NCBI GenBank assembly: GCA_964016885.1
Contig: OZ024742.1
Coordinates: 210,056,001-210,120,000 of the forward strand
Source of the DNA: Eledone cirrhosa
Lineage: Eukaryota
Reading direction: 5' to 3'
Length of the DNA stretch: 64,000 nt
Positions 3,200 through 59,902 of the stretch are shown here, piece after piece; within the stretch, counting starts at the first letter, position 1; every line of letters begins with the position of its first letter. The translations under genes were made by a program, and so were the position numbers. Under the pieces are notes generated by a model. That model ran no database searches. It was given only the letters and a program-made list of their open reading frames with translations, and was not told where the DNA came from.

Positions 3200-5150
3200 G
3201 GAAACTATATTTATAAAACCATATTTATTCTATTATACATATTTCAAGGGCCACCAAGGCAGATTGTGGTGCGCTTTCATCAGATAAAATATAATACAAA
3301 TTAGTTTTATAAATAAATATTGACATACCCTGAAAAAAATGCAACCTTAACGGTTGGAGCTTCCTGGATAGTGGAGATATTAGATTTATTGTTATGATTT
3401 AGTATGCAAATTAGTGTCGGAAAGGTTTAAATAACAGTATATTTAAATTAAACAGTTGGAAGAGAGAAAAAAAGAAAGAAAGAGAAAAGGAATTGTTTAT
3501 ATATATTTTTTGCCAGTGGGAGAGAGTAAACGTGACTATATTTAAGTGAGAGAGAATATTAGTTATAAGGACAATTATAGCGTAAGTTTGTTTACGTGAG
3601 AGGAGAGAAGAAGCGAAGAAACGAATACAGCGTGGATGAATAATAGCAGGATTCATTTTAATGATAGGTTGAAAAAATGTTATCTAAGGTTTAATTAATA
3701 AATTTGATTAAATGTTTAATTAATAATTTAATAGTTTAATCATTAGTTTAAATGTGTATGTTAGATTATTTAAAAAATTAAAAACTACTATATATTATTA
3801 AAAAATATATTATTATTATAAAAACATATATATTATTATTATAATAAAATATATATTATCATTAATTATTAATTATTAAAAAAATTGTAGGTTAAAAGTA
3901 TCCAAATAATTCTAAACCCATAGAAATTCCGAGAGTTTACAGAAGAATAACCCCTTATTTGTATTATAATAGCAGTACAGCGTAAAAGAAATTATTAGTG
4001 ATTTATTAATAACTCAGATGACTCTAAGGATTAAATGCTATAAGGTTAAGAAGTTAAAAAGTTAAATTTTCTATCTTAAGAATGTAATTAGAATATGAAT
4101 CTTATGGTATGTTATACTAAGTCATAAATTTATAAATTCATAAATTTACCTGTTATAAAGTTATAACAGTTAAAACATAAATTTACTTGCCATAACGTCA
4201 CAACATATAGAAATTATAACATTTAAAATTTTCATAAGAATATATTTAAAGCATAAAGCACAAAAAATCTCTTTCATAAGAATATATTTATAAAATATAT
4301 TTAAAGTATAAATTTTAGGTTATACCACATATACATCAAAAATCACTATGTTTATCATATATATATAAACATTTGGATATATATTTATTAAGCATTTGAA
4401 AAATATAAGAATATAGAAATATAAAATACACAATATAAAATATGAATTATAATTTTCCTATACCTGTCAGAGGAATTTTCAAAAAATTTTCCTTAAATCC
4501 TTCAGTAGGTTTATCAAGAAAAATGTATTCATTATTTATTCAAAGTAATCAAATTATTTTACAAACGGGATAAAAAAGATATATTCCGGACGCAGTCCCG
4601 CACACCTTTCTTTATTATTGTTAAGATATATATATTGAAATATACCTGTTGATATTTTCAATTATTGATATATTTTGAATTATTGTTGTTGTTCTGCAGC
4701 CCCCCTCCCCCATGTCACCTCTGACCGAACAGGTCTATGGCCTAACTAGTCAGACTAAAAATGAGAGTGTTTGATCCATAAATATAATTGTTCCAGATAT
4801 TCCATCTATCTGCCTAGCTGACTATCATACTGTATTTTCCAGCATACTGTATATTCATAAGTGATTCAACGTGATACTGTATACAATTCCAGTGATATTC
4901 GTTTTGTAGGATTCTGTGGTTATGCAACGAAATGAGTTTCCCTAAGCTGTTGTAGAATAACTAACTGGCTTTTATACTGTTCATGTTCAATAATATATGA
5001 AGTTTGTTATCTTTGTTACGCGTTTGTTGATTAAGACACTGTATTGTTTTCCCAAGTAGGTTATAAGATTCCTGTTGAAAGGTGGATTAAACCAGATCTT
5101 ATTTCTTTCACTGGTGTTGGTTTTGTTATTGTTTGCGGTACGTGAGATAT
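3200..5150 (-). mobile_element. Decayed Penelope-like retroelement (GIY-YIG remnant, AT-rich 3' region, pLTR)
   Basis: Minus strand near 4800-4900 reads NITGIVYSIT (GIY-like motif). HHR at 3227-3290 is in the same orientation at the 3' end. Confidence 0.55.
3227..3290 (-). ncRNA. Type I hammerhead ribozyme
   Basis: Minus strand: ATTTTAT-CTGATGA-AAGCGCACCA-caatctgcct-TGGTGGCCCTT-GAAA-TATGTA-TA-ATAGAAT; AUA triplet. Confidence 0.8.
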
Positions 5151-5530: not shown

Positions 5531-5639
5531 AACTGAGAGAGCAGATTCTCGGAACAAATACCACAAGGCATTCTATTCGACGTTCTATGCCTTACATGCA
5601 TATATATAATATATATATATATATACATATATAAAGAGA

Positions 5640-5730
<91 letters not shown>

Positions 5731-5731
<1 letters not shown>

Positions 5732-6302
5732 CAAACAAACCGAACATTATAATAAATGTTCGGTAAACCCATACATACATATATATATGTGTGCATGTAT
5801 GTATATATATACATACTACTGTACGTCTGTATACATATATGTATGTACGTATACATACTTATATTTAGGTATCAGCTGTACGAAGAGTGAGAAATGAAAT
5901 TTCGTTTCATTCTTTTCCATTTATCGTTTTCGGTACGCCGGGCCGACTAACTCACTCGATATGCAAATTAGGCTGCTCAGCCGTTAATATGCATAAGGAA
6001 AGTATATACTTTCAAACGTTCAATCATCTGACAGAAAGGTATACGATGCTGACGATAGCTAATAAGCTTGAAACTGGTACATCGTTCCTATGTCAGTGTT
6101 GAACAAAAGGGCGACGATGGTTGCCGAGCACTGTACGGCGTAATTCGGGCTGTTTGTTTACAAACAAACCGAACATTATAATAAATGTTCGGTAAACCCA
6201 TACGTACATATATATATATATATGTGTGCATGTATGTATATGTATATGTATATATACATACTACTGTACGTCTGTATACATATATGTATGTACGTATACA
6301 TA

Positions 6303-6309
<7 letters not shown>
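5731..6309 (+). mobile_element. Retrozyme-like non-coding element with ~135-150 bp terminal direct repeats and internal HHR
   Basis: acaaacaaaccgaacattataataaatgttcgg...catacttatat occurs at 5731-5864 and 6160-6309; HHR at 6043-6085; flanked by (TA)n. Confidence 0.7.
6043..6085 (+). ncRNA. Minimal type I hammerhead ribozyme
   Basis: ACGATG-CTGACGA-t-AGCT-aata-AGCT-t-GAAAC-TG-GTA-CATCGT. Perfect 6-bp stem I, intact core, GUA triplet, very short stem III. Confidence 0.85.
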
Positions 6310-6394
<85 letters not shown>

Positions 6395-6967
6395 AATATA
6401 TATATATATATATGTATATATGTGTGTGTGTGTGTAGAAATAAACACAGTAAATTCTGTGTCTAAAATTACGAGGGTAGAGAATGCCACAAATGTTTTAT
6501 ATATTTTACCTGCAACATACAGTACGATATAAAATTATATACAGACCGTATCAATAACCATTTCATCTCTCGGACAGATTAGAGATTTAATCTGTTTCGC
6601 CCTGAAAATTGTGTTTGTAACAGATAATCCGTAGGCTTTCCTCAGCAAGAGATAAGATCAAATGAAACAAAACACATCTAACAACAACTCACATGAGTAA
6701 ATAATACACCTCGTGGGTTGCGCGCTATACGTGGTGTGAGTGGATGTACTAGAAATAATAGTCTTATTACACTCAACTTATAAGCTCACCTAGTTAGGGA
6801 GCCGAATACAAATAAAATACAGAGTTTTTAACTGATATTGATACTCTGAAATTAACAAGCTCAAAATATAAATAGTGAGCATTATATAATAATATATGTA
6901 GATATAAACTACCCTCGTAATTTTAGACACGGAATTTACTTTGTTTATTTCTACATATATTATTATA

Positions 6968-7393
6968 TAATTGGTTCTACTTTAGGCACAAGGCCAGCAA
7001 TTACCCAGTACATTACTGGTACTTTATTTTATCGACCCCGTAAGGATGAAAGGCAAAGTTAACCTCGGCGGGATTTGAACTCAGATTGTAAAGGGACGTA
7101 ACTATGCTAGAAAGCATGGCGTCCACCCATATATATTATTATATAATTGTTTCTACTTTTGGCACAAGGCCAGCAATTATTCAGTGCATTACTGGTACTT
7201 TATTTTATCGACCCCGTAAGGATGAAAGGCAAAGTTAACCTCGGCGGGATTTGAACTCAAACCATAAAGGGGCGTAACTCTTTGCTGCAAAGCATAGCGT
7301 CAGACCCTCTACCGATACTGCCAATCCACTATACTTTGAACTTGTAATTGCAGGGTATCAATATGAGTTAATAACTGTATTTTATTAGTATTT

Positions 7394-7433
<40 letters not shown>

Positions 7434-7615
7434 GTTTCTACTTTAGGCACAAGGCCAGCAATTACCCAGTGCATTACTGGTACTTTATTTTATCGACCCC
7501 GTAAGGATGAAAGGCAAAGTCAACCTCAGCTGGATTTGAACTCAGATCGTAAAGGGACGTAACTATGCTGGAAAGCATGGCGTCCGACCCTCTACCGATA
7601 CTGCCAATCCACCGC
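6968..7615 (-). mobile_element. Three tRNA-derived SINE (family 1) copies (~6968-7125, 7145-7330, 7431-7615)
   Basis: ~190 bp unit with A-box-like TGGCAGTATCGG, B-box GTTCAAATCC and core ttgcctttcatccttacggggtcgataaaataaagtacc. Confidence 0.9.
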
Positions 7616-10760: not shown

Positions 10761-13160
10761 GTCAACGCGATCAGTCGCATATTTTGGCGTGGGAGGCTAT
10801 TTATTAAATTTAAGATGAATACTATCTCCGACATGTTGAATAACTGCTTATTCTTCTAACTATATCTTCTGAAGATACCTTTTATTCGAATTCGTAGAGA
10901 TATCCGACTAAATACTCAATTCATTTTACAAGGATTTGCTACAAACAGCATGGCTGAACACAACATCAACAACAAAATTAAGAAAGTATCGAAGACAAAC
11001 AACAAGAAAGGTAAATAAACGTTATTCAGTTGTAGCTACAGAAGAAACCGAAATTATAAATCGCATTTCTCTTGGAGTTGCGAACTTAATAATGATTTAT
11101 TTAATTGTTATAAAATGGCAAAAAACAATCTCTCTATTGGTTATATGAACAGAATGAAGCTACACTGGGACGAAATGCACCCAGAGCTAAATTATTTCAC
11201 AGCGAAACAATTACGCCAACAAGCGACGTTTGTTGAACGTAAAAATAAGATAAATAGTATTAATTGTAAGTCCCCCACAACAAACATGGGATCAACAACA
11301 CGTGCTACAGGTTGCCATGCTACTAGACTTCCTAGCAGCCAGGTCGAACAGCGCCTTGAAACAACTATGCCTGTAAGAAACTTGACACCACCTGTACCAT
11401 CTAAGTCTACCTCGAAAGCTTGGGAAAACACTATCGATAATAATAATAATCGAAGAAATAATAATAATAATCAAAGAAATTTGACACCACGTGTACCATC
11501 CGAGTCTACCTCGACTGTTGTGGAAAATACTATCGATAATGATAATAATCAAAGTATAAACAATTGAAAATTTCCCTCAACGAAATCTTCCAGAGAGAAT
11601 TAGTTCATGTATAAATATATCTCTTGCTGAACGTATTAAAAGGACAATGTTTAATAAAAAAAAAAAAAAAAATAATGAAATATTACGTGTTATTGACGAA
11701 ATAGGGGTGAATATTTACGACGGATAAAAACCCCAAAATTTTGGCAAATCGGCGCCTATTTATATGCCCTAGCAACTATCTTGGTGATAGCAGAGATATT
11801 AACAAGAACAAAACACCACCAAAAATACCATCATATATAACTAAAATAGAAAAAGAAATTGCTGACCTACGAAAAACCATAGGATATGTGACAATGCTCC
11901 TTACATGCAAACAAACACAAAAAACCTCACTCCTCACCAACAAAGAGTGAAAGATGAAATAGAAACGATCTTTGGTAACAGTAGAACCAGAACTCTTCAA
12001 TATAAGCTGATCACCCTCAAACAAGAATTGAGAGCTGTTAGTGAAAAACGCCGATACCTGAAGAAGGTAGATGACAGAAAAGTGCTTAAAAAAAGATTCA
12101 GACGAAACCAAACATCAGTCTATAGAGATGTGAAGAACAAAATAATAAGTGTCACTGAGGCCCCATCCCAGAAAGACATAGATTCCTTTTGGAGAAAAAT
12201 ATGGGATGAAAAGAAGAATTTCAACCAAGATGCAGTGTGGCTAAAAGAAATCTGAAAGAACTATTGCTCTTACACTACACGAAATACCTGATTCACAAAA
12301 GAGATAGGGATGCAGGCAAAACACCTAGATGTGATAACAAGTGCAGACTCTGCAGAACTAACGTCGAGGATATCACCCATGTCATCAGCAGCTCTCCAAA
12401 GATGTCATCGCGGTACTATCTACCTATGAGGCATGATGTAGTGGCCAAAACACTGTAAAATGCAGTTCGTAAAAAAGATAGCCCCGATAATAAACACATT
12501 AAAAGCTACAGCAATGTGGAAGTCATCCACGTACATAATATGAAAGAGTACTGGTGGAATGTTCCAGTAAAAACCCCAATAAAATGCAGGCATAACAGAC
12601 CAGATATTATGATATGGGACAGGGAGAAAAAAGCATGCACAGTAGTGGAAATTAGCTGCCCAGCATATGCCAATATAATATCAAAGATTAGCGAAAAGGA
12701 GAATATTTATGCAGAACTGATGAGAAATCTGCAGATACTCCACCCTGATTGCACCTTCAGATTTATGCCTGTGATTATTGGGGCACTGGGGTATGTTAGT
12801 AACTGCCTCAATACAAATCTTGAGAAGCTAGGCTTCACAGGGACAGAAAGAACACAACTAGTTAGGAAATTACAAGTACAATCCATTAATGGAACAGTAA
12901 AAATATGTAAAACATTCCAAAAATATTGCATCTAATAACTGCATATACACATGTACAGATACAAAGCATATACACATGCACACATACAACTCAAAACATA
13001 CACATCCACACATACAATAACATCCATATCTACACACGCATACATATCTACCTCGTTGATGTTGTGTAAATTCCAATGAGAGAGTCTTGTGTCTATGTTA
13101 GAAACCGACTCTCTCTCTCTATTGGGAAAAAGATTTGTGAAATTATAAAACCAGAAGAAC
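10761..13160 (+). mobile_element. R4/Dong-like RLE non-LTR retrotransposon, copy 1 (RT deleted)
   Basis: N-terminal YMNRMKLHWDEMHP...KQLRQQ, zinc knuckle CRLC..EDITHVISS, RHD and RPD..VEI restriction-like endonuclease motifs; begins after (CATA)n. Confidence 0.85.
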
Positions 13161-13304
13161 ATACATACATACATACATATACATGCACACACATACACAC
13201 ATACACACATACACACATACATACACAGATACATGCATACGTACATACATACATACATACATACATACATACATACATACATACATACATACATACATAC
13301 ATAC

Positions 13305-13495
13305 ATTGGATTTGCGGACAAAGAGCGCAGCTCCCTAATTCATAGTCTACAAATGGCTGCGATAGCTGGCACCTTCAAAATTTGCAAAACATTCTTGCGA
13401 TTCAAGGGATGACAATTTCTTTTCTTTTACAACCTTGCCACCAGGAAGGTGGCCGGTCAAAAAAATATACTCGAAATTAAGAGAAAGAGATAAAC
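13305..13495 (+). mobile_element. Extremely 5'-truncated 3' end of a second R4-like family (duplicate at ~15274-15462)
   Basis: Encodes GFADKERSSLIHSLQMAAIAGTFKICKTFLRFKG*, paralogous to the RLE C-terminus GTVKICKTF; flanked by (CATA)n on both sides. Confidence 0.75.
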
Positions 13496-13513
13496 ATACA
13501 TACATACATACAT

Positions 13514-15225
13514 AAAAATTTCCCTCGACGAAATCTTCCAGAGAGAAATTAATTCATGTATAAACATTCTTCTTGCTGAACGAATTAAAACAACAATACT
13601 ATATTTTTAAAAAAAACAAATAATGAAATATTATGTGCTATTGACGAAATTAGGGATGAATATTTACGATGGAATAAAACCCCAACATTTTGGCAAATCA
13701 ACGCCTGTTTATATGCCCTAGCAACGACAGTGAAGCATTATCTTGGTGATAGCAGAGATATTAACAAGAACAAAACACCACCAAAAATACCATCATATAT
13801 AACTAAAATGGTAAAAAAGATTGCTGACCTACGAAAAACCATAGGATATGTGACAATGCTCCTTACATGCAAACAAACACAAAAAAAACCTCACTCCTCA
13901 CCAACAAAGAGTGAAAGATGAAATAGAAACGATCTTTGGTAACAGTAGAACCAGAACTCTTCAATATAAGCTGATAACCCTCAAACAAGAATTGAGAGCT
14001 GTTAGTGAAAAACGCCGATACCTGAAGAAGGTAGATGACAGAAAAGTGCTTAAAAAAAGATTCAGACGAAACCAAACATCAGTCTATAGAGATATGAAGA
14101 ACAAAATAATAAGTGTCACTGAGGCCCCATCCCAGAAAGACATAGATTCCTTTTGTAGAAAAATATGGGGTGAAAAGAAGAATTTCAACCAAGATGCAGT
14201 GTGGCTAAAAGAAATCTGAAAGAACTATTGCTCTTACACTACACGAAATACCTGATTCACAAAAGAGATAGGGATGCAGGCAAAACACCTAGATGTGATA
14301 ACAAGTGCAGACTCTGCAGAACTAACGTCGAGGATATCACCCATGTCATCAGCAGCTCTCCAAAGATGTCATCGCGGTACTATCTACCTATGAGGCATGA
14401 TGTAGTGGCCAAAACACTGTAAAATGCAGTTCGTAAAAAAGATAGCCCCGATAATAAACACATTAAAAGCTACAGCAATGTGGAAGTCATCCACGTACAT
14501 AATATGAAAGAGTACTGGTGGAATGTTCCAGTAAAAACCCCAATAAAATGCAGGCATAACAGACCAGATATTATGATATGGCACAGGGAGAAAAAAGCAT
14601 GCACAGTAGTGGAAATTAGCTGCCCAGCATATGCCAATATAATATCAAAGATTAGCGAAAAGGAGAATATTTATGCAGAACTGATGAGAAATCTGCAGAT
14701 ACTCCACCCTGATTGCACCTTCAGATTTATGCCTGTGATTATTGGACCACTGGGGTATGTTAGTAACTGCCTCAATACAAATCTTGAGAAGCTAGGCTTC
14801 ACAGGAACAGAAAGAACACAACTAGTTAGGAAATTACAAGTACAATCCATTAATGGAACAGTAAAAATATGTAAAACATTCCAAAAATATTGCATCTAAT
14901 AACTGCATATACACATGTACAGATACAAAGCATATACACATGCACACATACAACTCAAAACATACACATCCACACATACAATAACATCCATATCTACACA
15001 CGCATACATATCTACCTCGTTGATGTTGTGTAAATTCCAATGAGAGAGTCTTGTGTCTATGTTAGAAACCGACTCTCTCTCTCTATTGGGAAAAAGATTT
15101 GTGAAATTATAAAACCAGAAGAACATACATACATACATACATATACATGCACACACATACACACATACACACATACACACATACATACACAGATACATGC
15201 ATACGTACATACATACATACATACA

Positions 15226-15259
<34 letters not shown>

Positions 15260-15481
15260 CATACATACATACATTGGCTTTGCGGACAAAGAGCGCAGCT
15301 CCCTAATTCATAGTCTACAAATGGCTGCGATAGCTGGCACCTTCAAAATTTGCAAAACATTCTTGCGATTCAAGGGATGACAATTTCTTTTCTTTTACAA
15401 CCTTGCCACCAGGAAGGTGGCCGGTCAAAAAAATATACTCGAAATTAAGAGAAAGAGATAAACATACATACATACATACAT
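13514..15481 (+). mobile_element. ~1.97 kb tandem duplicate of R4/Dong-like fragment (copy 2)
   Basis: ORFs at 12516 and 14480 (offset 1964) and at 13730 and 15698 (offset 1968) are near identical; same RT deletion junction as copy 1. Confidence 0.92.
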
Positions 15482-17957
15482 AAAAATTTCCCTCGACGAA
15501 ATCTTCCAGAGAGAAATTAATTCATGTATAAACATTCTTCTTGCTGAACGAATTAAAACAACAATACTATATTTAAAAAAAAAACAAATAATGAAATATT
15601 ATGTGCTATTGACGAAATTAGGGATGAATATTTACGATGGAATAAAACCCCAACATTTTGGCAAATCAACGCCTGTTTATATGCCCTAGCAACGACAGTG
15701 AAGCATTATCTTGGTGATAGCAGAGATATTAACAAGAACAAAACACCACCAAAAATACCATCATATATAACTAAAATGGTAAAAAAGATTGCTGACCTAC
15801 GAAAAACCATAGGATATGTGACAATGCTCCTTACATGCAAACAAACACAAAAAAAACCTCACTCCTCACCAACAAAGAGTGAAAGATGAAATAGAAACGA
15901 TGTTTGGTAACAGTAGAACCAAAACTCTTCGATATAAGCTGATCACCCTCAAACAAGAATTGAGAGCTGTTAGTGAAAAACGCCGATACCTGAAGAAGGT
16001 AGATGAGAGAAAAGTGCTTAATAAAAGATTCAGACGAAACCAAACATCAGTCTATAGAGATATGAAGAACAAAATAATAAGTGTCACTGAGGCCCCATCC
16101 CAGAAAGACATAGATTCCTTTTGGAGAAAAATATGGGGTGAAAAGAAGAATTTCAACCAAGATACAGTGTGGCTAAGAGAAATCTGAAAGAACTATTGCT
16201 CATACACTACAACAAATACATACGAAATAAGTGACGGTATCGTTGAGACTGTGGTAGGAAAACTCCAAGATAAGAAAGCACCAGGAAGAGACATGATTGT
16301 CGGCTACTGGTACAAAAAACTGATATTCTATCGCAGGTATCTTACTGACCTTTACCTACAAGTTCTTAAGGGAGATATACTTATACCAGAATGGTTGACA
16401 TTAGCACAAACATTACTGGTCCCCAAGAACAGAGACACCCACTTGGCAAAAAAACTACCGACCCATTGCATGACAGAACCTGATGTATAAGATGTATACA
16501 GCCTGCCTGAACCTATTCCTCCAAGATCACTGAGAAAATAATAACATCATCACAGATGAACAACTGCTGGAATGAAAGGGGTTTGGGGATGTGCTGAACA
16601 ACTCCTAATCAACAAAACTGCGATGTCGGTGGTGCGACAACTTAGGAGGAATATGGCTACAGTCTTGCTGGACTACAGGAAAGCTTTCGATTCTGTTCCC
16701 CACTCTTGGATAATAGAGGCCCTCCAACCTGCTAAAGTCCCAGACATTATTGTCAGAGCCATAGAGAAACTGTCTTCTTCTTGGGCTACTATCCTAAGGT
16801 TAAAAACAGTGAGGGAGGACTCTATTTTCACTGATAAAATAAAATATCGCAGTGGTATATTTCAGGGAGACAGTCTCTCTGTGATATTATTCATCTTGTC
16901 ATTAAATCCCTTGTCCTTTCTGCTCAAGAAATGTGAAGCATACATCATTGGCTTACAAGAGGACAGAAATAAGAACCTAACCCATAATTTCTTTGTGGAC
17001 GATCTGAAACTCTATGCCAAGAACATAGATGGGATGAAGAAAAATCTTGACCTGGTTATAACGTTCTCAAAGAATATAGGAATGGAGTTTGGCCAAGATA
17101 AATTCTCATACATGACTGTAAGGCGGGGGAAAAACAACAACCCAATCTAGCAACATTGTCATCAATGGCCTAACTGTTTTACCGATATCTGATGAGGACT
17201 GTTACAGATACCTGGGCATAGATGAGAACATATCCTATAATTGTATCTGTAATAAGGAACGCGTAACCAGGGAATACTACTGTGCCTGTCCTAACACCAA
17301 CGTTTGGAATACTCAATTAGACGATAGACGAAATCAGATCACTTCATCTTGGAACTCGAAAAATACTAAACAACACCGGAAACTTCCACATCAACAATGA
17401 CATAGACCGCCTTTACTTGAAACGTAAGCAGGGAGGCAGAGGCCTAACATCAGTCCAGACAGCATTTGAATGTCGCATCATATCCCCCCGACCACATCTA
17501 CGAACCTCGAAGCGTAGGAGCCCGTTTCTCGAGCAAGTCTATCTACATGAAACAGATAAGATCATGAGAGTTGGGAAGGAACTCCTCGAGAGATATTCCC
17601 TGTGTGATAATCAAAAACTCACACCCAGGGATGTCGCTCAGCAGTATCGCAGTGAATCCATGGATGAAAAACTGCATGCTTATCAGCAAAAAATCATGCA
17701 TGGATATGTTGCCAGGCAGCTCCAGAGTGAGAGTAATATAGATAAGAAAAGTAGTCTATTTTGAACCAACAACCGCTATATTGGCTCCCACTTTGAAGGA
17801 TACGCTTTTGCAATCCAAGAACAGGAGATTAATACGAAATACCTGATTCACAAAAGAGATAGTGATGCAGGCAAAACACCTAGATGTGATAACAAGTGCA
17901 GACTCTGCAGATCTAACGTCGAGGATATCACCCATGTCACCAGCAGCTCTCCAAATG
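15482..17957 (+). pseudogene. R4/Dong-like reverse transcriptase pseudogene (copy 3)
   Basis: KAPGRD, DYRKAFDSVPHSW, GIFQGDSLS, FFVDDLKLY and RKQGGRGL motifs, with frameshifts and stops. Confidence 0.92.
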
Positions 17958-19780
17958 TCTGTTTATATGCCCTAGCAACGACAGTGAAGCATTATTTTGG
18001 TGATAGCAGAGATAATAACAAGAACAAAACACCACCAAAAATACCATCATATATAACTAAAATGGAACAAAAGATTGCTGACCTACGAAAAACCATAGGA
18101 TATGTGACAATGCTCCTTACATGCAAACAAACACAAAAAGACTTCACTCCTCACCAACAAAGAGTGAAAGATAAAATAGAAACCAATATAAGCTGATCCA
18201 ATATAAGCTGATCACCCTCAAACAGGAATTGAGAGCTATCAGAGAGAAACATCGATATCAGAAAAAGGTAGGTGAAAGAAAAGTGCTTAATAAAAGATTC
18301 AAACGAAACCAAACATCAGTCTATACAGATATGAAGGGCAAAATAATAAGTGTCACTGAAGCCCCATCCCACAAAGACATAGATTCCTTTTGGAGAAAAA
18401 TATGGGGTAAAAAGAAGAATTTCAACCAAGATGCAGTGTGGCTAAAGGAAATCCAAAAGAACTATTGCTCCTACACTACAACAAAAACATACGAAATAAA
18501 TTAGAATACCCTTGAGACTGTGATAGGAAAACTCCAAGATAAGAAAACACCAGGAAGAGACATGATTGTTGGCTACTGGTACAAGAAACTGATATTCTAT
18601 CGGAGGTATCTTACTGACCTCTACCAACAAGTTCTTAAGGGAGATATACTTATACCAGAACGGTTGACATTAGCACAAACAATGCCACCCACTTGGCAAA
18701 AAACTACCGACCCATTGCATGCCAGAACCTGATGTATAAGATGTATACAGTCTGCCTGAACCAATTCCTCAAGATCACTGTGAAAATAATAACATCATCA
18801 CAGATGAACAAGCAGCTGGAAAGAAAGGGGTTTGGGGATGTGCTGAACAACTCCTAATCAACAAAACTGCGATATCGGAGGTGCAACAACTTAGCAGGAA
18901 TATGACTACAGTCTGGCTAGACTATAGAAAAGCTTTCGATTCTGTTCCCCGCTCTTGGATGATAGAGGCCCTCCAACTTGCTAAAGATATTATGAAAGCC
19001 ATAGAGAAGCTGTCTTCTTCTTGGGCTACAATTCTAAAGTTAAAAACAGAGAAGGATAAAATAGAATATCACAGGGGTGTATTTCAGGGAGACAGTCTCT
19101 CTACGATACTATTTATCCTCTCATTAAACCCCTTGTACTTTCTGCTCAAGAAATGTGAAGGATACATCATTGGCTCACAGGAGGACAGAAATACGAACTT
19201 AACCCATAATTTCTTTGTGGATGATCTGAAACTTAATGCCAAGAACATGGATTGGATGAAGAAAAATCTTGACCTGGTTACAACATTCTCAAAGGATACA
19301 GCAGTAAAGCGGGGAAAAACAACAACCAAATCTAGCAATTTTGTCATCAATTGGCCTAACTGTTTTACCGATATCTGATGAGGACTGCTACAAATACCTG
19401 GGGATAGATGAGAACATAGGCTATAATGGTATCTGTAATAACGAACGCGTAACCAGGGATTATTACACCCGATTAAGTAAAATATGGTCATCGGAACTCT
19501 CTGCGCACAATAAAACAGTGGCTCACAATGTATTTGCTGTGCCTGTCCTAACACCAACATTTGGAATACTCAATTGGACGATAGACGAAATCCGAGCAAT
19601 TGATGTTAGGACTCGAAAAATACTAAACACCGGAAACTTCCACATCAACAGTGACATAGACCGCCTCTACTTGAAACGTAAGCAGGGAGGCAGATGCCTA
19701 ACGTCAGTCCAGACAGCATTTGAATATCGCATCATATCTCTCCGACAACATTTACGAACCTTGAAGCGTAGGAGCCCGTC
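17958..19780 (+). pseudogene. R4/Dong-like reverse transcriptase pseudogene (copy 4, more diverged)
   Basis: WLDYRKAFDSVP, GVFQGDSLS, FFVDDLKL and YKYLGIDE motifs; frameshifted and 3'-truncated. Confidence 0.9.
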
Positions 19781-20019
19781 TATTCTTTCGTGTTTTCGTA
19801 TATCTCTTATATTCTTTTGTACATTTCTGTAAAATCTTGTAGAAGTTATAACAAAGCTAAGCCTTACGTGTGTGCGTATTTCTATTATAATTTGTATGTA
19901 TGTATATATGTATGTATGTGTGTATGGATGGATGGATGTGTGTATGCATGTATGTATTAGTGTGTGTGCATGTATGTACGTATGTATGTATGTGTGTGTG
20001 TGGGGGGGGGGGGGGGGTT

Positions 20020-20935
20020 ATGTATGTTCTAGTTTTATAATTTCACAAATTTTTACCAATAGAGAGTCGGTTTCTAACATAGATACAATACTCTCTCATT
20101 GGAATTTACACAACATCAACTAGGTAGATATGTATGCATGTCTGCATGAATGTATGTGTGTGCAGATATGGATGTTATTGTATGTTTTGAGTTATATATG
20201 TCTAATAACTCTATGTACACATGTACAGAAACAAAGCATATACAGATATGCTTTGTATCTGTACATGTGTACATAGAGTTATTAAATGCAGAATTTTTTG
20301 CATGTTTTACATCTTTTTACTGTTCATTAGTGGATTGGCAGTATCGGTAGAGGGTCGGACGCCATGCTTTCCAGCATAGTTACGTCCCTTTACGATCTGA
20401 GTTCAAATCCCGCCGAGGTTGACTTTGCCTTTCATCCTTACGGGGTCGATAAAATAAAGTACCAGTAATGCACTGGGTAATTGCTGGCCTTGTGCCTAAA
20501 GTAGAAACAATTAATGGATTGTACTTGTAATTTTCTAACTAGTCGTGTTCTTTCTGTTTCTGTGAAGCCTACCTTCTCAGGATTTGTACTAGGCAGTTAC
20601 TAACATATTCCAGTGCCCCAATAATCACAGGTATAAATCTGAAGGTATAGTCAGTGTGGAGTATCTGCAGATTTCTCATTAGTTCCGCATAAATATTCTC
20701 CTTTTCGTTAATCTTCAATATCCTATTGGCATCTGCTGGGCAGCTAATTTCCACTATTGTGCATGCCTTCTTTACCCTGTCCCATATCATTATATGTGGC
20801 CTGTTATGCCTGCATTTTATTGGGGTTTTGACTGGAACATTCCACCAGTAATCTTTCATCATATTCTGTATATGTGTGTCTTCCACATTGCTGTAGCTTT
20901 TAATGTGATTATTGTCGGGGCTATCTTTTCTATGG
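20020..20935 (-). mobile_element. Inverted R4/Dong-like RLE domain and 3' region, interrupted by a SINE
   Basis: Minus ORF YWWNVPVKTPIKCRHNRPHIMIWDR..IVEISCP; the sequence is the reverse complement of ~12475-13160. Confidence 0.88.
20329..20512 (+). mobile_element. SINE family 1
   Basis: Near full-length, inserted in the R4 fragment with atta(g/a)tggatt at both junctions. Confidence 0.92.
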
Positions 20936-21489
20936 ATTATACGTATGTATGTATATACGGTTCCAAACAGGAATATTAATTTATTTATCAATTCCGTGGA
21001 TTTCGACTAGCTTAGATCTAGAAACGTTTTAGTTTACTCAATCTGAAATTATAGTTTCATTTAGAGCTACAAATTACACAAAGGACAATATCAACAATGT
21101 ATACAGTACAACGCCAGACTAGTGTAATTTAAGATACAATAGAATTCATTATGCGATTCGATCAGAAAGCGGTATTTTAAATCGCATTTTAATAATAGCA
21201 AAATTTCGAATTCTGATTCAGACAGGAGTATTTGATTAATCTTAGGATTAATTCAGATAGAATAAGTTACGATGCGTGTATTCACAGTTTGGATTCAGAA
21301 GCTTTACGTTCCTGAATACATGAATTTCATAAAATAAATCATCGGAGAAAATATCAGAAGACATTGATAAAGACATTATTGAGAATCTTTTCTAAGCTGT
21401 AATTATAACACAAACAGCACGATTAACGAAAGCAACAGTGATTATCTCTATAGCAAAGAGTCAGCAATTCGAATCCTATTATTAGTACT

Positions 21490-24119: not shown

Positions 24120-24440
24120 GGCTATTGGCAGTATCGGTAGAGGGTTTGACGCCATGCTTTCCAGCATAGTTACGTCCCTTTACGATCTGAGTTCAAATCC
24201 CGCCGAGGTTGACTTTGCCTTTCATCCTTACGGGGTCGATAAAATAAAGTACCAGTAATGCACTGGGTAATTGCTGGCCTTGTGCCTAAAGTAGAAACAA
24301 TTATAATTATCTACAATGTAGATAAATATAACTTTGTATTTCATCCTTATGGGGTCGATAAAATAAAGTACCAGTAATACACTGGATATTTGCTGGCCTT
24401 GTGCCAAAAGTAGAAACAATTATAATTATCTACAATGTAG
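24120..24440 (+). mobile_element. SINE family 1 plus tandem partial duplicate
   Basis: Consensus match; the 3' half and flank ttataattatctacaatgtag are repeated. Confidence 0.88.
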
Positions 24441-28722: not shown

Positions 28723-28904
28723 CGAAGGAAATGTGGTAAGGAACCAGGTGGACCATAACGCACCAAAGTACTCAATACTTGGGGTAGTAGAGTGGGTAAT
28801 AGGAACCGGTAAGACCCCGACGGCTGAGCTCAAGCCGTTTCGACGGCTAATTCAGAATTAGCCGTCGGAACGGCTTGAGCTCAGCCGTCGGGGTCTTACC
28901 GGTT

Positions 28905-28908
<4 letters not shown>
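28511..28908. repeat. Compound fold-back element (tail-to-tail copies around (TA)n, each with a terminal hairpin)
   Basis: 28560-28645 is the reverse complement of 28721-28806; 28800-28908 is itself a palindrome centred near 28853. Same family as 50534-50782. Confidence 0.9.
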
Positions 28909-28937
<29 letters not shown>

Positions 28938-29044
28938 GGCGATGAATTTGTTTTGCAATGATTTTGATATGAAATCGTGTGTTTTAATAAATATTGTTAT
29001 ATTTGGAGAGGGTCATGTTGTTATAATATTGCCAGAAATAATAA

Positions 29045-41552: not shown

Positions 41553-41584
41553 AGATCAAAAGATGGTTAAAGGAGTTCCATATA

Positions 41585-41651
41585 TTTTATTATGCGCATT
41601 TCAAAAACAAACATCATCAAACAATAATATTTGTGTTTTCATCAGATAAAA
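41585..41651 (-). ncRNA. Type I hammerhead ribozyme (left arm)
   Basis: Reverse complement of 44744-44810. Confidence 0.85.
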
Positions 41652-42569
41652 CAGGAGAACATGATATGAAGGCTAAAAAACACTTGTGGATAGTGCAGTT
41701 TTAAATCAACATATGAAAAGTGGTTTTAGATTGATGTGTGATATTGGGAAAATATTTTATTTAGAGAGGGGGGGGGGAGAAAAGGATGAAAAGGGAAGGA
41801 GATGAGAGGGAGAGATGGGTGATAGAGAGAAAGAGATAGTTTTTATAACTGAGAGGAGATATATTTTATATAGAGGGGTTGAAAACCGTTGGAAGATACT
41901 GTATAAATTAAAAATTTTGAAAATTAACGAAGGGAGGATATGTGCGAGGAAAAAATATATTATTTAGGGAGGGGGGGTGGAAAGGATGAAAAAAAGGGGA
42001 GGAGATGAGAGTGAATGTGGAAAGGGAGAGATGGGTGATAGTTTGAAAGAGATAGTTTTTATAACTGAGAAAAAGATATAATGTTTTAATATAGAGAGGT
42101 TGGGAACCGTTGGAAGATAATGTATAAATTAAAGGAATTTGAAAATTAACGAAGGGAAATTATGTATGAAGATAGAGAGAAAAAAATAATAATTGTGGGT
42201 GAATATTCTAACGTCAAAAGAAGAAATGTAGGAATTTCAAAATTAGCAAAGAGAAAAAAGTTTATGTGTAGAAGGATTTGAGAAAAATAATGTGAAGTTA
42301 AAGTTTGTATATTGAATTCATATGTATTAATAATGAGTTCGTTGATGGGGAGAAAAAAATAATAATAAATTAAGGATGAAATTGAGATTAAAAAGATTTA
42401 TGATAGAGAGAAAAAATAATAATGATTGCGGATGAATTCTCAAAATGTCAAAAACAAATGTTATTGTTTTACGAGAAGATAGAATGAGGGTAATGAGTAA
42501 ACGAGTATTATAGAGTGTATAATGCCCTTTAAGGTAAGGTAAATGGGTATATTTTAAAGAATATATGAG

Positions 42570-42608
<39 letters not shown>

Positions 42609-44743
42609 ATAAATTAAGGATGAAATTGAGATTAAAAAGATTTATGATAGAGAGAAAAAATAATAATGATTGCGGATGAATATTCAAAATGTCAAAAACA
42701 AATGTTATTGTTTTACGAGAAGATAGAATGAGGGTAATGAGTAAACGAGTATTATAGAGTGTATAATGCCCTTTAAAGTAAGGTAGATGGGTATATTTTA
42801 AAGAGGTGTATGTATATGTGCCTTTGAGAAAAGATTCTAAATTGATAAAGAATTGAATATTAACTGTATACTTTGTGAAAAGTTCTATGGAATTTATGCA
42901 GGCAGATAGAAAACAAATCTGAGCGTCTATTTATTATGGATTCTAGGTTAGAGATAATGGTAAATTTTTCATTTAGGCAGAGATTACAGATTTTAGATAG
43001 AGAGCTGTTCAAGTATGAGGATGCAGAAGAAATCTTTTTCCAAAAGATGTTATATTTAATGTTTTTGTCTTTTAAGGACCATATGAGTTCTGAGAGAGCA
43101 GTGTTAGTTCTTTTAAGTTTGTATTTGAAATACAAACTTAAAAGAACTAACACTGCTAACACTAAACTTTTAAGTTTGTATTTCAAATACAAACTTAAAA
43201 GAACTAACACTGCTCTCTCAGAACTAACACTGCTAACACTAAACTTTTAAGTTTGTATTTCAAATACAAACTTAAAAGAACTAACACTGCTCTCTCAGAA
43301 CTCATATGGTCCTTAAAAGACAAAAACATTAAATATAACATCTTTTGGAAAAAGATTTCTTCTGCATCCTCATACTTGAACAGCTCTCTATCTAAAATCT
43401 GTAATCTCTGCCTAAATGAAAAATTTACCATTATCTCTAACCTAGAATCCATAATAAATAGACGCTCAGATTTGTTTTCTATCTGCCTGCATAAATTCCA
43501 TAGAACTTTTCACAAAGTATACAGTTAATATTCAATTCTTTATCAATTTAGAATCTTTTCTCAAAGGCACATATACATACACCTCTTTAAAATATACCCA
43601 TCTACCTTACTTTAAAGGGCATTATACACTCTATAATACTCGTTTACTCATTACCCTCATTCTATCTTCTCGTAAAACAATAACATTTGTTTTTGACATT
43701 TTGAATATTCATCCGCAATCATTATTATTTTTTCTCTCTATCATAAATCTTTTTAATCTCAATTTCATCCTTAATTTATTATTATATTTTTTTTTTTTTT
43801 TTTTTTTAATATATACTCATATATTCTTTAAAATATACCCATCTACCTTACCTTAAAGGGCATTATACACTCTATAATACTCGTTTACTCATTACCCTCA
43901 TTCTATCTTCTCGTAAAACAATAACATTTGTTTTTGACATTTTGAGAATTCATCCGCAATCATTATTATTTTTTCTCTCTATCATAAATCTTTTTAATCT
44001 CAATTTCATCCTTAATTTATTATTATTTTTTTCTCCCCATCAACGAACTCATTATTAATACATATGAATTCAATATACAAACTTTAACTTCACATTATTT
44101 TTCTCAAATCCTTCTACACATAAACTTTTTTCTCTTTGCTAATTTTGAAATTCCTACATTTCTTCTTTTGACGTTAGAATATTCACCCACAATTATTATT
44201 TTTTTCTCTCTATCTTCATACATAATTTCCCTTCGTTAATTTTCAAATTCCTTTAATTTATACATTATCTTCCAACGGTTCCCAACCTCTCTATATTAAA
44301 ACATTATATCTTTTTCTCAGTTATAAAAACTATCTCTTTCTCTCTATCACCCATCTCTCCCTTTCCACCTTCACTCTCATCTCCTCCCCTTTTTTTCATC
44401 CTTTCCAACCCCCCCCCCCCCTCCCTAAATAAAATATTTTTTCCTCGCACATATCCTCCCTTCGTTAATTTTCAAAATTTTTAATTTATACAGTATCTTC
44501 CAACGGTTTTCAACCCCTCTATATAAAATATATCTCCTCTCAGTTATAAAAACTATCTCTTTCTCTCTATCACCCATCTCTCCCTCTCATCTCCTTCCCT
44601 TTTCATCCTTTTCTCCCCCCCCCCCTCTCTAAATAAAATATTTTTCCCAATATCACACATCAATCTAAAACCACTTTTCATATGTTGATTTAAAACTGCA
44701 CTATCAACAAGTGTTTTTTTAGCCTTCATATCATGTTCTCCTG

Positions 44744-44810
44744 TTTTATCTGATGAAAACACAAATATTATTGTTTGATGATGTTTGTTTTTGAAATGCG
44801 CATAATAAAA
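44744..44810 (+). ncRNA. Type I hammerhead ribozyme (right arm)
   Basis: TTTTAT-CTGATGA-AAACACAAATATTATTG...TGATGATGTTTGTTTTT-GAAA-TGCGCA-TA-ATAAAA; palindromic stem III ATGCGCAT, AUA triplet. Confidence 0.85.
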
Positions 44811-44936
44811 TATATGGAACTCCTTTAACCATCTTTTGATCTTATATTATGCATATTCCAGTCCCACAAACTGTAGAGTGCTTCTTATCCGATATCTGCA
44901 TTGCTTTATTGTACTACAATAAAACTCACCTCCTAC

Positions 44937-50838: not shown

Positions 50839-51121
50839 ATAGAATAGCTTTCACCGTATTTTTTACTAAAGGAATTTTAGCCTGATAATGGGGTTTAGAA
50901 CCCTCAGATAAAAGGAAAAAGATGAGTATTGATGTACATGGGAGTCGAACTCACATCTTTGGTTATCCAGACCACTGTGTTACCATTACACCAACTCTGG
51001 ATAACCAAAGATGTGGGTTCGACTCCCATGTGCATCAATACTCATCTTTTTCCATTTATCTGAGGGTTCTGAACCCCATTATCAGGCTAAAATTTCTTTA
51101 GTCAAAAATACGGTGAAAGCT

Positions 51122-59835: not shown

Positions 59836-59902
59836 TATTTTATCTGATGAGGACGTACTGTTGAAGTTAGTTCAGTACCTCTGAAATATGTATAATAAAA
59901 TA
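59836..59902 (+). ncRNA. Type I hammerhead ribozyme
   Basis: TATTTTAT-CTGATGA-ggac-GTACTG-ttgaagttagtt-CAGTAC-ctct-GAAA-TATGTA-TA-ATAAAATA. Stems I and III closely match the HHR at 3227-3290. Confidence 0.82.

Follow-up and report, generated by a model that had tools for sequence, protein, structure and literature searches.

A high-copy non-LTR retrozyme family in Eledone cirrhosa, likely mobilised by Penelope-like elements

Introduction

An insert of about 580 bases lies between (TA)n tracts in a 64,000-nt stretch of Eledone cirrhosa contig OZ024742.1 (the whole stretch is called the window below); it begins and ends with the same sequence and holds one hammerhead ribozyme motif. Is it a retrozyme, a piece of a coding Penelope-like element (PLE) or a local duplication, and how did it come to be there? 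The question bears on how animal retrozymes move. PLEs were proposed as a strong candidate for mobilising metazoan non-LTR retrozymes from their co-occurrence (Cervera and de la Pena 2020, PMC7229834), and later from the homology of Xenopus retrozymes to pLTRs, non-LTR retrozymes being viewed as non-autonomous PLEs (bioRxiv 10.64898/2026.07.22.740005). Here we conclude, with a probability of roughly 0.8, that the insert belongs to a high-copy non-LTR retrozyme family (R1), newly described within this known class and likely mobilised in trans by PLEs through target-primed reverse transcription.

Results

The insert is 1.32 turns of a 429-nt non-coding unit

The insert consists of one complete unit of 429 nt, numbered q1-q429, followed by a second copy of q1-137, and thus makes 1.32 turns (Table 1). 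The two copies of the terminal redundancy align over 138 columns with one internal substitution and one at the far end; the right copy holds in addition two microsatellite-type insertions of 6 and 10 nt. This bears out the original prediction, made from the letters of the window, of ~135-150 bp direct repeats around a unique core, ~1.3 turns of a ~430 nt monomer, a hairpin in the repeat, (TA)n on both sides and no coding capacity; its right end, placed at 6309, has to be moved to near 6312. The unit contains no credible ORF, the sole frame of 120 aa or more that touches it being a microsatellite translation, and the RT and GIY-YIG ORF of an autonomous PLE is absent from it. Its GC content is 0.37, under the 45% used as a retrozyme criterion. 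Two other loci, L114 and L126, extend nearly as the window copy does.

Table 1. Features of the insert and its flanks, in window coordinates
Feature	Position	Strand	Basis or remark
Left (TA)n target tract	5600..5730 (or to 5731)		TA common to tract and unit at the 5' junction (TA/CAAAC)
Complete 429-nt unit q1-q429, family R1, subfamily A	5731..6159	+	Head-to-tail period ~420-430 at other loci
Left copy of the terminal redundancy, q1-137	5730..5867	+	Repeat alignment
Hairpin CCGAACATT-ataata-AATGTTCGG	5740..5763; second copy 6169-6192	+	One of several unit hairpins
Unique core between the direct repeats	5868-6158	+	
57-nt tail separating the family-wide 3' ends S (q137) and T (q194)	5868..5924	+	End mapping
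Hairpin AATGAAA/TTTCATT inside the tail	5893-5911	+	
Type I hammerhead	6028..6096	+	Core motif and helices
Extended helix I	6028-6048/6080-6096	+	
Hammerhead core CUGACGA	6049-6055	+	
Helix II, U-U at base, loop UAAUAA	6056-6069	+	
GAAA	6070-6073	+	
GUA	6077-6079	+	Predicted cut after 6079
Helix III, ACUGGU in this copy		+	Family form ACUAGU (palindrome); private A>G at 6076
Right copy of the redundancy, q1-137	6159..6312	+	Stops at site S, the putative start of reverse transcription
Right (TA)n target tract	6313..6421		

Thousands of copies and a sister family

A DNA search of the 3.0-Gb genome (1,796 contigs) with the unit returned 2,601 candidates, and the 40 that were scored were 95-100% identical to it over the core. 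Exact 32-letter patterns from the hammerhead and from q426-28 occurred 10,399 and 14,449 times genome-wide, and the reversed control of each gave 0. A retrozyme-type unit with dispersed and tandem copies had been anticipated and is indeed what the genome holds; the opposite outcome, a single-copy sequence with a local duplication, is at odds with these thousands of copies. Thirty full R1 units were divided into subfamily A (6 units, like the window copy) and subfamily B (24 units). When a pattern that leaves out A and B was used, 11,329 further hammerheads were found (control 9); most of the 100 listed belonged to a sister family, R2, and a few to a third R1 subfamily. R2, with up to 11,329 hammerheads genome-wide, has a unit of 466-469 nt (~468) in three subfamilies and is 60.5% identical to R1 over the aligned unit.

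R2, sampled at C1:30,831,609-30,841,400 (L269, L284) and C1:5,738,093-5,752,646 (L264, L265), is very young, with perfect two-armed arrays, and is a better experimental subject than the window copy. Divergence is 0-1% for many R2 copies, from which a young and intact PLE family is to be expected as partner. Contigs from three sequencing runs for R1 and two for R2, the kind of run being unrecorded, contained the families, the T end described below and the joint between units; they are uninformative on expression or circles, because tandem DNA explains the joint.

Compensatory changes in the hammerhead and in the whole unit

The scan for type I hammerheads found five motifs in the window, compared with a mean of 0.02 in 100 block-shuffled windows. 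Rfam matched none of the window hammerheads at the gathering threshold or at E<=10; its miRNA matches in the window were discarded as AT-repeat look-alikes below threshold. The motif in the insert had been described as an intact minimal hammerhead: the type I core and its GUA are indeed intact, but the motif is not minimal, its helix I being extended. The private variant in helix III is rare, with 19 exact copies genome-wide against 10,399 for the family pattern, and still gives a six-pair helix III duplex in an in silico duplex energy calculation.

Across R1 and R2, an internal loop interrupts the long helix I, helix II consists of 3-4 pairs under a six-base loop that is conserved, and helix III is one pair closed by a palindromic tetraloop; the triplet at the predicted cut site is GUA, GUU or GUC. 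The base of helix II, normally G-C, is U-U in R1A and R1B, and this may weaken cleavage. In an alignment of 12 hammerheads from six subfamilies, 92% of the cells were paired and 10 of 19 pairs showed two-sided change, with covariation in helices I and II; sliding the helix partners, as a control, cut the pairing to 35-47%. The whole unit behaved likewise: two-sided change was seen in 22 of 83 consensus pairs among 14 units of R1 and R2, a sample of two related families in which independent covariation events are few because the compared sequences are related, a relatedness that also inflates the shuffle control. Folded as circles, R1 and R2 share one branched structure, with z between -7 and -15 (25 shuffles each).

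Insertions end at two fixed internal sites

Insertion ends were mapped at loci picked by exact patterns along the first 42 Mb of contig C1, in order of position. This gave 182 unit-derived runs, of which 164, in 110 clusters, were kept after edge, very short and microsatellite look-alike matches had been dropped. The 3' ends fell at two fixed internal sites 57 nt apart: 70 runs ended at site S (q127-141, 49 of them exactly at q137), 64 at site T (q184-195, 54 exactly at q194) and 30 elsewhere. A (TA)n tract followed directly after 62 of the 70 S ends and 56 of the 64 T ends, and the exact junction of T end and (TA)n occurred 1,580 times genome-wide for subfamily A alone. A longer TA tract inside the unit (~q46-56) was seldom a 3' end, so S and T look determined by structure or protein rather than by target homology. 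The 5' ends, by contrast with these fixed sites, were variable and scattered across the whole unit.

Both orientations were present in 45 of the 110 R1 clusters. The 44 head-to-head pairs comprised 26 S+T, one S+S and no T+T, together with 17 in which one arm was unclassifiable. Thus, 26 of 27 classifiable pairs joined an S arm to a T arm (p=4e-7), or 24 of 25 when the duplicated L205 pairs were counted once. R2 followed the same rule, with 14 of 16 pairs S+T, two having one unclassifiable arm, and a tail of ~70 nt. Taken together, R1 and R2 carry the insertion signature of PLEs, namely 5' truncation, an inverted 5' arm, a tail on one arm and an AT-rich target; target-site duplications are unreadable inside (TA)n.

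The fixed internal 3' end at q137, with a 5' truncation that happened to fall near q1, accounts for the terminal redundancy of the window copy, which is a by-product, not an LTR and not a constant part of the element. On this reading, the window copy is a subfamily A insertion with a single arm, in which reverse transcription would have begun at S and, 1.32 turns later, broken off near q1. It has one hammerhead in place of the two consecutive hammerhead units that the 2026 preprint takes as the mark of an active copy (10.64898/2026.07.22.740005) and that occur at other R1 loci, and is therefore incapable, alone, of releasing unit-length RNA. From this, it is unlikely to be a source element. 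It is an ordinary, probably inactive copy of the family.

Multi-turn arrays and the nature of the template

Arrays were joined seamlessly from unit to unit. Among the 164 R1 runs, 77 exceeded one turn, in line with the predicted reverse transcription more than once round the unit, and 10 made at least two turns; the maximum was 7.5 turns in R1 and 30.7 in R2. Of 72 runs anchored at q426, 59 crossed the predicted cut site, and the 5' ends did not pile up at q350: four of 72 lay within q344-356, and the five stops among 65 runs at risk were like those in other bins. This argues against cleaved linear monomers as the main template, which we rejected. One R2 insertion (C1:30,831,609-30,841,400) had 6.85 turns ending at S on one arm and ~13.9 turns ending at T on the opposite arm, with every complete unit identical to the consensus; the T end of the longer arm had been predicted before its flank was inspected, and was then found. 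An identical two-arm array of this sort would be expected from rolling-circle copying, but it could also come from a multimeric transcript of uniform sequence or from smoothing by the assembly, which may homogenise such arrays.

Two other arrays were set aside. The variant pattern of the ABAB array L081 fits a later DNA duplication and not a dimeric circle, and the variants of the 30.7-turn R2 array (L264/265) are reshuffled, so that it provides no evidence of rolling-circle copying. The duplication patterns at these loci show that long arrays grow at the DNA level too.

We incline towards a circle as the template, allow an uncleaved multimer somewhat less than even odds, and hold end-to-end jumping to be very improbable. 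A possibility to be taken seriously, if not a probable one, is that the same family is a non-autonomous PLE copied from linear, uncleaved multi-unit transcripts, with no circle and with a hammerhead that is inactive or plays no part. Runs that cross the cut site are equally expected from such a template, the DNA-level growth of arrays fits it, and the window copy is explained equally well by an uncleaved multimeric transcript. Published work points the same way: in vitro, the anole PLE takes unprocessed RNA and its hammerhead mutants insert normally (PMC11167929), and one of nine Xenopus dimers was cleaved according to the available text of 10.64898/2026.07.22.740005. Yet 5' truncation should shorten linear-templated arrays in each round, whereas identical 7- and 14-turn arrays stand on the two arms of one insertion, and the hammerhead core and helices have been kept, with compensatory changes, between families that are 60% alike.

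Coding PLEs share the end signature of R1 and R2

Autonomous PLEs co-occur with the family: the genome yielded 10,596 GIY-YIG candidates, of which 150 were scored. In Pfam, family N3 has RT and GIY-YIG in one ORF, the P1 ORF gives a weak RT match (its GIY-YIG-like C-terminus was judged by eye), and a set of 10 PLE ORF fragments gave one weak RT match. Adjacent coding-PLE end pairs from the same loci were S+T in 10 of 11 cases, the remaining one being unclassified; P1 supplied five S+T pairs and the unclassified one, and N3 five S+T pairs, while one non-adjacent N3 pair was S+S. The tails of P1 and N3 measure 56-57 and 66 nt. R1 and R2 ends thus match those of PLEs, which suggests that the families are likely parasites of PLE enzymes. 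The link to PLEs drawn in the original prediction is strengthened by the S and T ends and by pairs with a tail on one arm, as in coding PLEs. By eye, the tail hairpin resembles the 3' regions of families N1 and N3 over short AT-rich stretches, a likeness given no weight here.

These PLE-like ends would also be expected if a rare coding PLE outside the sample had supplied the unit, as its pLTR or as a 3' end cut short, with the copies as 5'-truncated stumps and the tandems made by template jumps. We regard this as unlikely, while noting that the inspected loci are 50 of the 10,596 candidates and dominated by a few families, and that Xenopus retrozymes are homologous to pLTRs (10.64898/2026.07.22.740005). 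No pLTR homologous to R1 or R2 was found at the 50 inspected GIY-YIG loci, and comparison of the units with GIY-YIG loci gave, among the matches listed, microsatellite matches and one separate R2 insertion (L224). None of the 164 sampled runs continued into shared coding sequence, contrary to the possibility raised at the outset that all homologues might be attached to PLE ORFs. Likewise, beyond the 67 free 5' ends and 30 atypical 3' ends, there was no recurrent non-unit sequence except for short inverted arms and unrelated repeats. PLE ORFs adjoining some copies (L122, L088, L133, L190, L225) were ruled out as parents, having their own ends and their own, different hammerheads; they are separate insertions by the same (TA)n tracts. 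Seamless junctions, the length of the R1 and R2 arrays, the proportion of runs longer than one turn and a structure kept across the entire unit also speak against a pLTR.

Three other origins, namely a DNA-level element (Helitron-like, or a MITE that targets TA), a SINE driven by a LINE and a local duplication, are hardly credible and largely refuted by the end mapping. Some DNA transposons are described as targeting TA microsatellites, and hairpins lie close to the ends, but one terminus of the unit alternates between two fixed internal positions while the opposite one varies, terminal inverted repeats are lacking, inverted arms have their own defined 3' end and more than 10,000 copies are dispersed. 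MITE or Helitron-type DNA elements have two fixed termini, whereas R1 5' ends spread over the whole unit. To our knowledge, L1-type twin priming yields no second defined 3' end.

The window and the sampled loci hold further PLE-related and other repeats. A 3.3-kb head-to-head palindromic insertion at 41555-44840 has identical hammerhead motifs at 41645 (-) and 44750 (+), internal duplications of 241-244 bp and 77 bp, and GIY-YIG-like coding remnants near its centre (42860-43250); its appearance is that of a PLE inverted and truncated at the 5' end. Type I hammerhead motifs also occur at ~3220-3290 (-) and 59840-59900 (+); they have helix I of the TTTTAT/ATA(A)AA type and are probably pLTR fragments of other PLE families. 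Fragments resembling the P1 3' end (75-81% identity) lie at 1977-2215 and 28903-29020. In abundant PLE families whose GIY-YIG domain is preceded by a CxxC motif (L166, L186, L183, L184, L231), which we take to be Neptune-like, the hammerhead-like core is a variant, with UUGAUAA or UUGAAAA where CUGANGA would stand, and helix III is palindromic, ACCGGU. A SINE-like repeat of 120-200 bp with partial tandem copies occurs at 6934-7594 and 24212-24440, and also within PLE ends at L088 and L233. At 11019-21006, several segments of broken non-LTR retrotransposons, which include RT and a frame resembling a C-terminal endonuclease, are duplicated with ~1.96-kb spacing, and a partial tRNA-like Rfam match of 33 bits at 50938-50993 (-) is possibly a SINE head.

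Discussion

The argument starts from what the genome displays directly: thousands of copies, arranged in tandem and head to head, whose 3' ends sit at two fixed sites while their 5' ends vary; runs that cross the cut site; and an RNA structure that covaries. In the PLE-mobilised retrozyme that we favour, multi-unit loci would be transcribed, and paired hammerheads with a palindromic helix III would cleave as dimers to release unit-length RNA, which would then be circularised. A PLE protein would then nick the (TA)n target and begin cDNA synthesis at S or T, within the RNA; with both DNA strands primed, one of the two sites would be used per strand. The enzyme would read back through the unit without halting at the cut site, sometimes over many turns, and the 5' end would be joined by microhomology.

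More tentatively, these steps could be joined into rolling-circle target-primed reverse transcription, in which a dimeric PLE enzyme would act on one hammerhead-made circle, both (TA)n strands would be nicked, and one cDNA begun at S and the other at T would be extended for up to 14 or more turns, giving mirror-image arrays in a single event. If true, this would indicate, from genomic evidence, that PLEs copy the circular RNAs of animal retrozymes, and would offer a mechanistic reason for the PLE tail being on one arm only.

The value of the locus lies not in the window copy itself but in the family-level signature and in the question of circular versus linear template. R1 and R2 show the PLE insertion signature directly and many times over, a short arm being paired with a tailed one almost without exception, and they point to satellite-like arrays arising at the moment of insertion. 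Since the existing in vitro PLE assay could use their defined start sites on the RNA, their defined target and the candidate enzymes, the choice between circle and linear template becomes directly testable.

Comparison with known systems

Our literature search, in which subscription journals were thinly covered, found no paper on the R1/R2 family or on retrozyme insertion ends. The closest relatives in kind are axolotl Rtz_331 and Rtz_353 and the newt satellite repeats (PMC7229834), which are likewise short, low-GC (37% here), non-coding tandem units with a canonical type I hammerhead, present in thousands of copies in genomes that also contain PLEs. The one-pair helix III with its palindromic tetraloop recurs in HHR_Amex1, and the U-U at the base of helix II of R1A and R1B in HHR_Amex2 (PMC7229834). 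R1 and R2 differ in their longer units (429 and 468 nt versus 150-400); furthermore, their insertion-end signatures have been mapped, whereas the PLE proposal in the available text of PMC7229834 comes from co-occurrence.

Judged from its helices, the R1/R2 hammerhead is of the canonical newt and axolotl type, with a long helix I and a palindromic helix III, and not of the minimal PLE type. The canonical metazoan hammerhead acts as a dimer (PMC4209133, PMC7229834). The minimal form has a long helix II (7-8 bp), a short helix I and a G10.1-C11.1 pair (PMC4209133), in contrast to the helix II of 3-4 bp, the extended helix I and, in R1A and R1B, the U-U at 10.1/11.1 found here.

With the 2026 preprint (10.64898/2026.07.22.740005), our analysis has in common the conclusion that these are PLE-dependent, hammerhead-bearing tandem units. 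Its evidence is co-occurrence and pLTR homology in Xenopus; ours is insertion anatomy, with no homologous pLTR among 50 loci. A term search of the available preprint text gave no occurrence of 'tail', 'target site' or 'mollus'.

Finally, the ends of R1 and R2 resemble those of PLEs with an endonuclease. PLE hallmarks include tandem and inverted copies, an inverted 5'-truncated arm and a tail on one inverted pLTR (PMC3846280, PMC8557442), and the anole PLE protein nicks AT-rich DNA in vitro, extends both strands and begins reverse transcription at two internal RNA sites, which define the tail (PMC11167929). Compared with anole Poseidon PAc (PMC11167929), rotifer Penelope (PMC3846280) and Naiad/Neptune (PMC8557442), as described in the available texts, R1 and R2 share partial tandems, a head-to-head inverted 5'-truncated arm, a one-arm tail, two internal 3' ends, AT-rich or (TA)n targets and a hammerhead upstream of the 3' ends. 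They differ in lacking an ORF, in a tail of 57-70 nt versus 30-40, in a canonical rather than minimal hammerhead and in seamless multi-turn arrays. The anatomy of R1 and R2 thus agrees with the published proposal of PLE mobilisation and adds insertion-level support to it.
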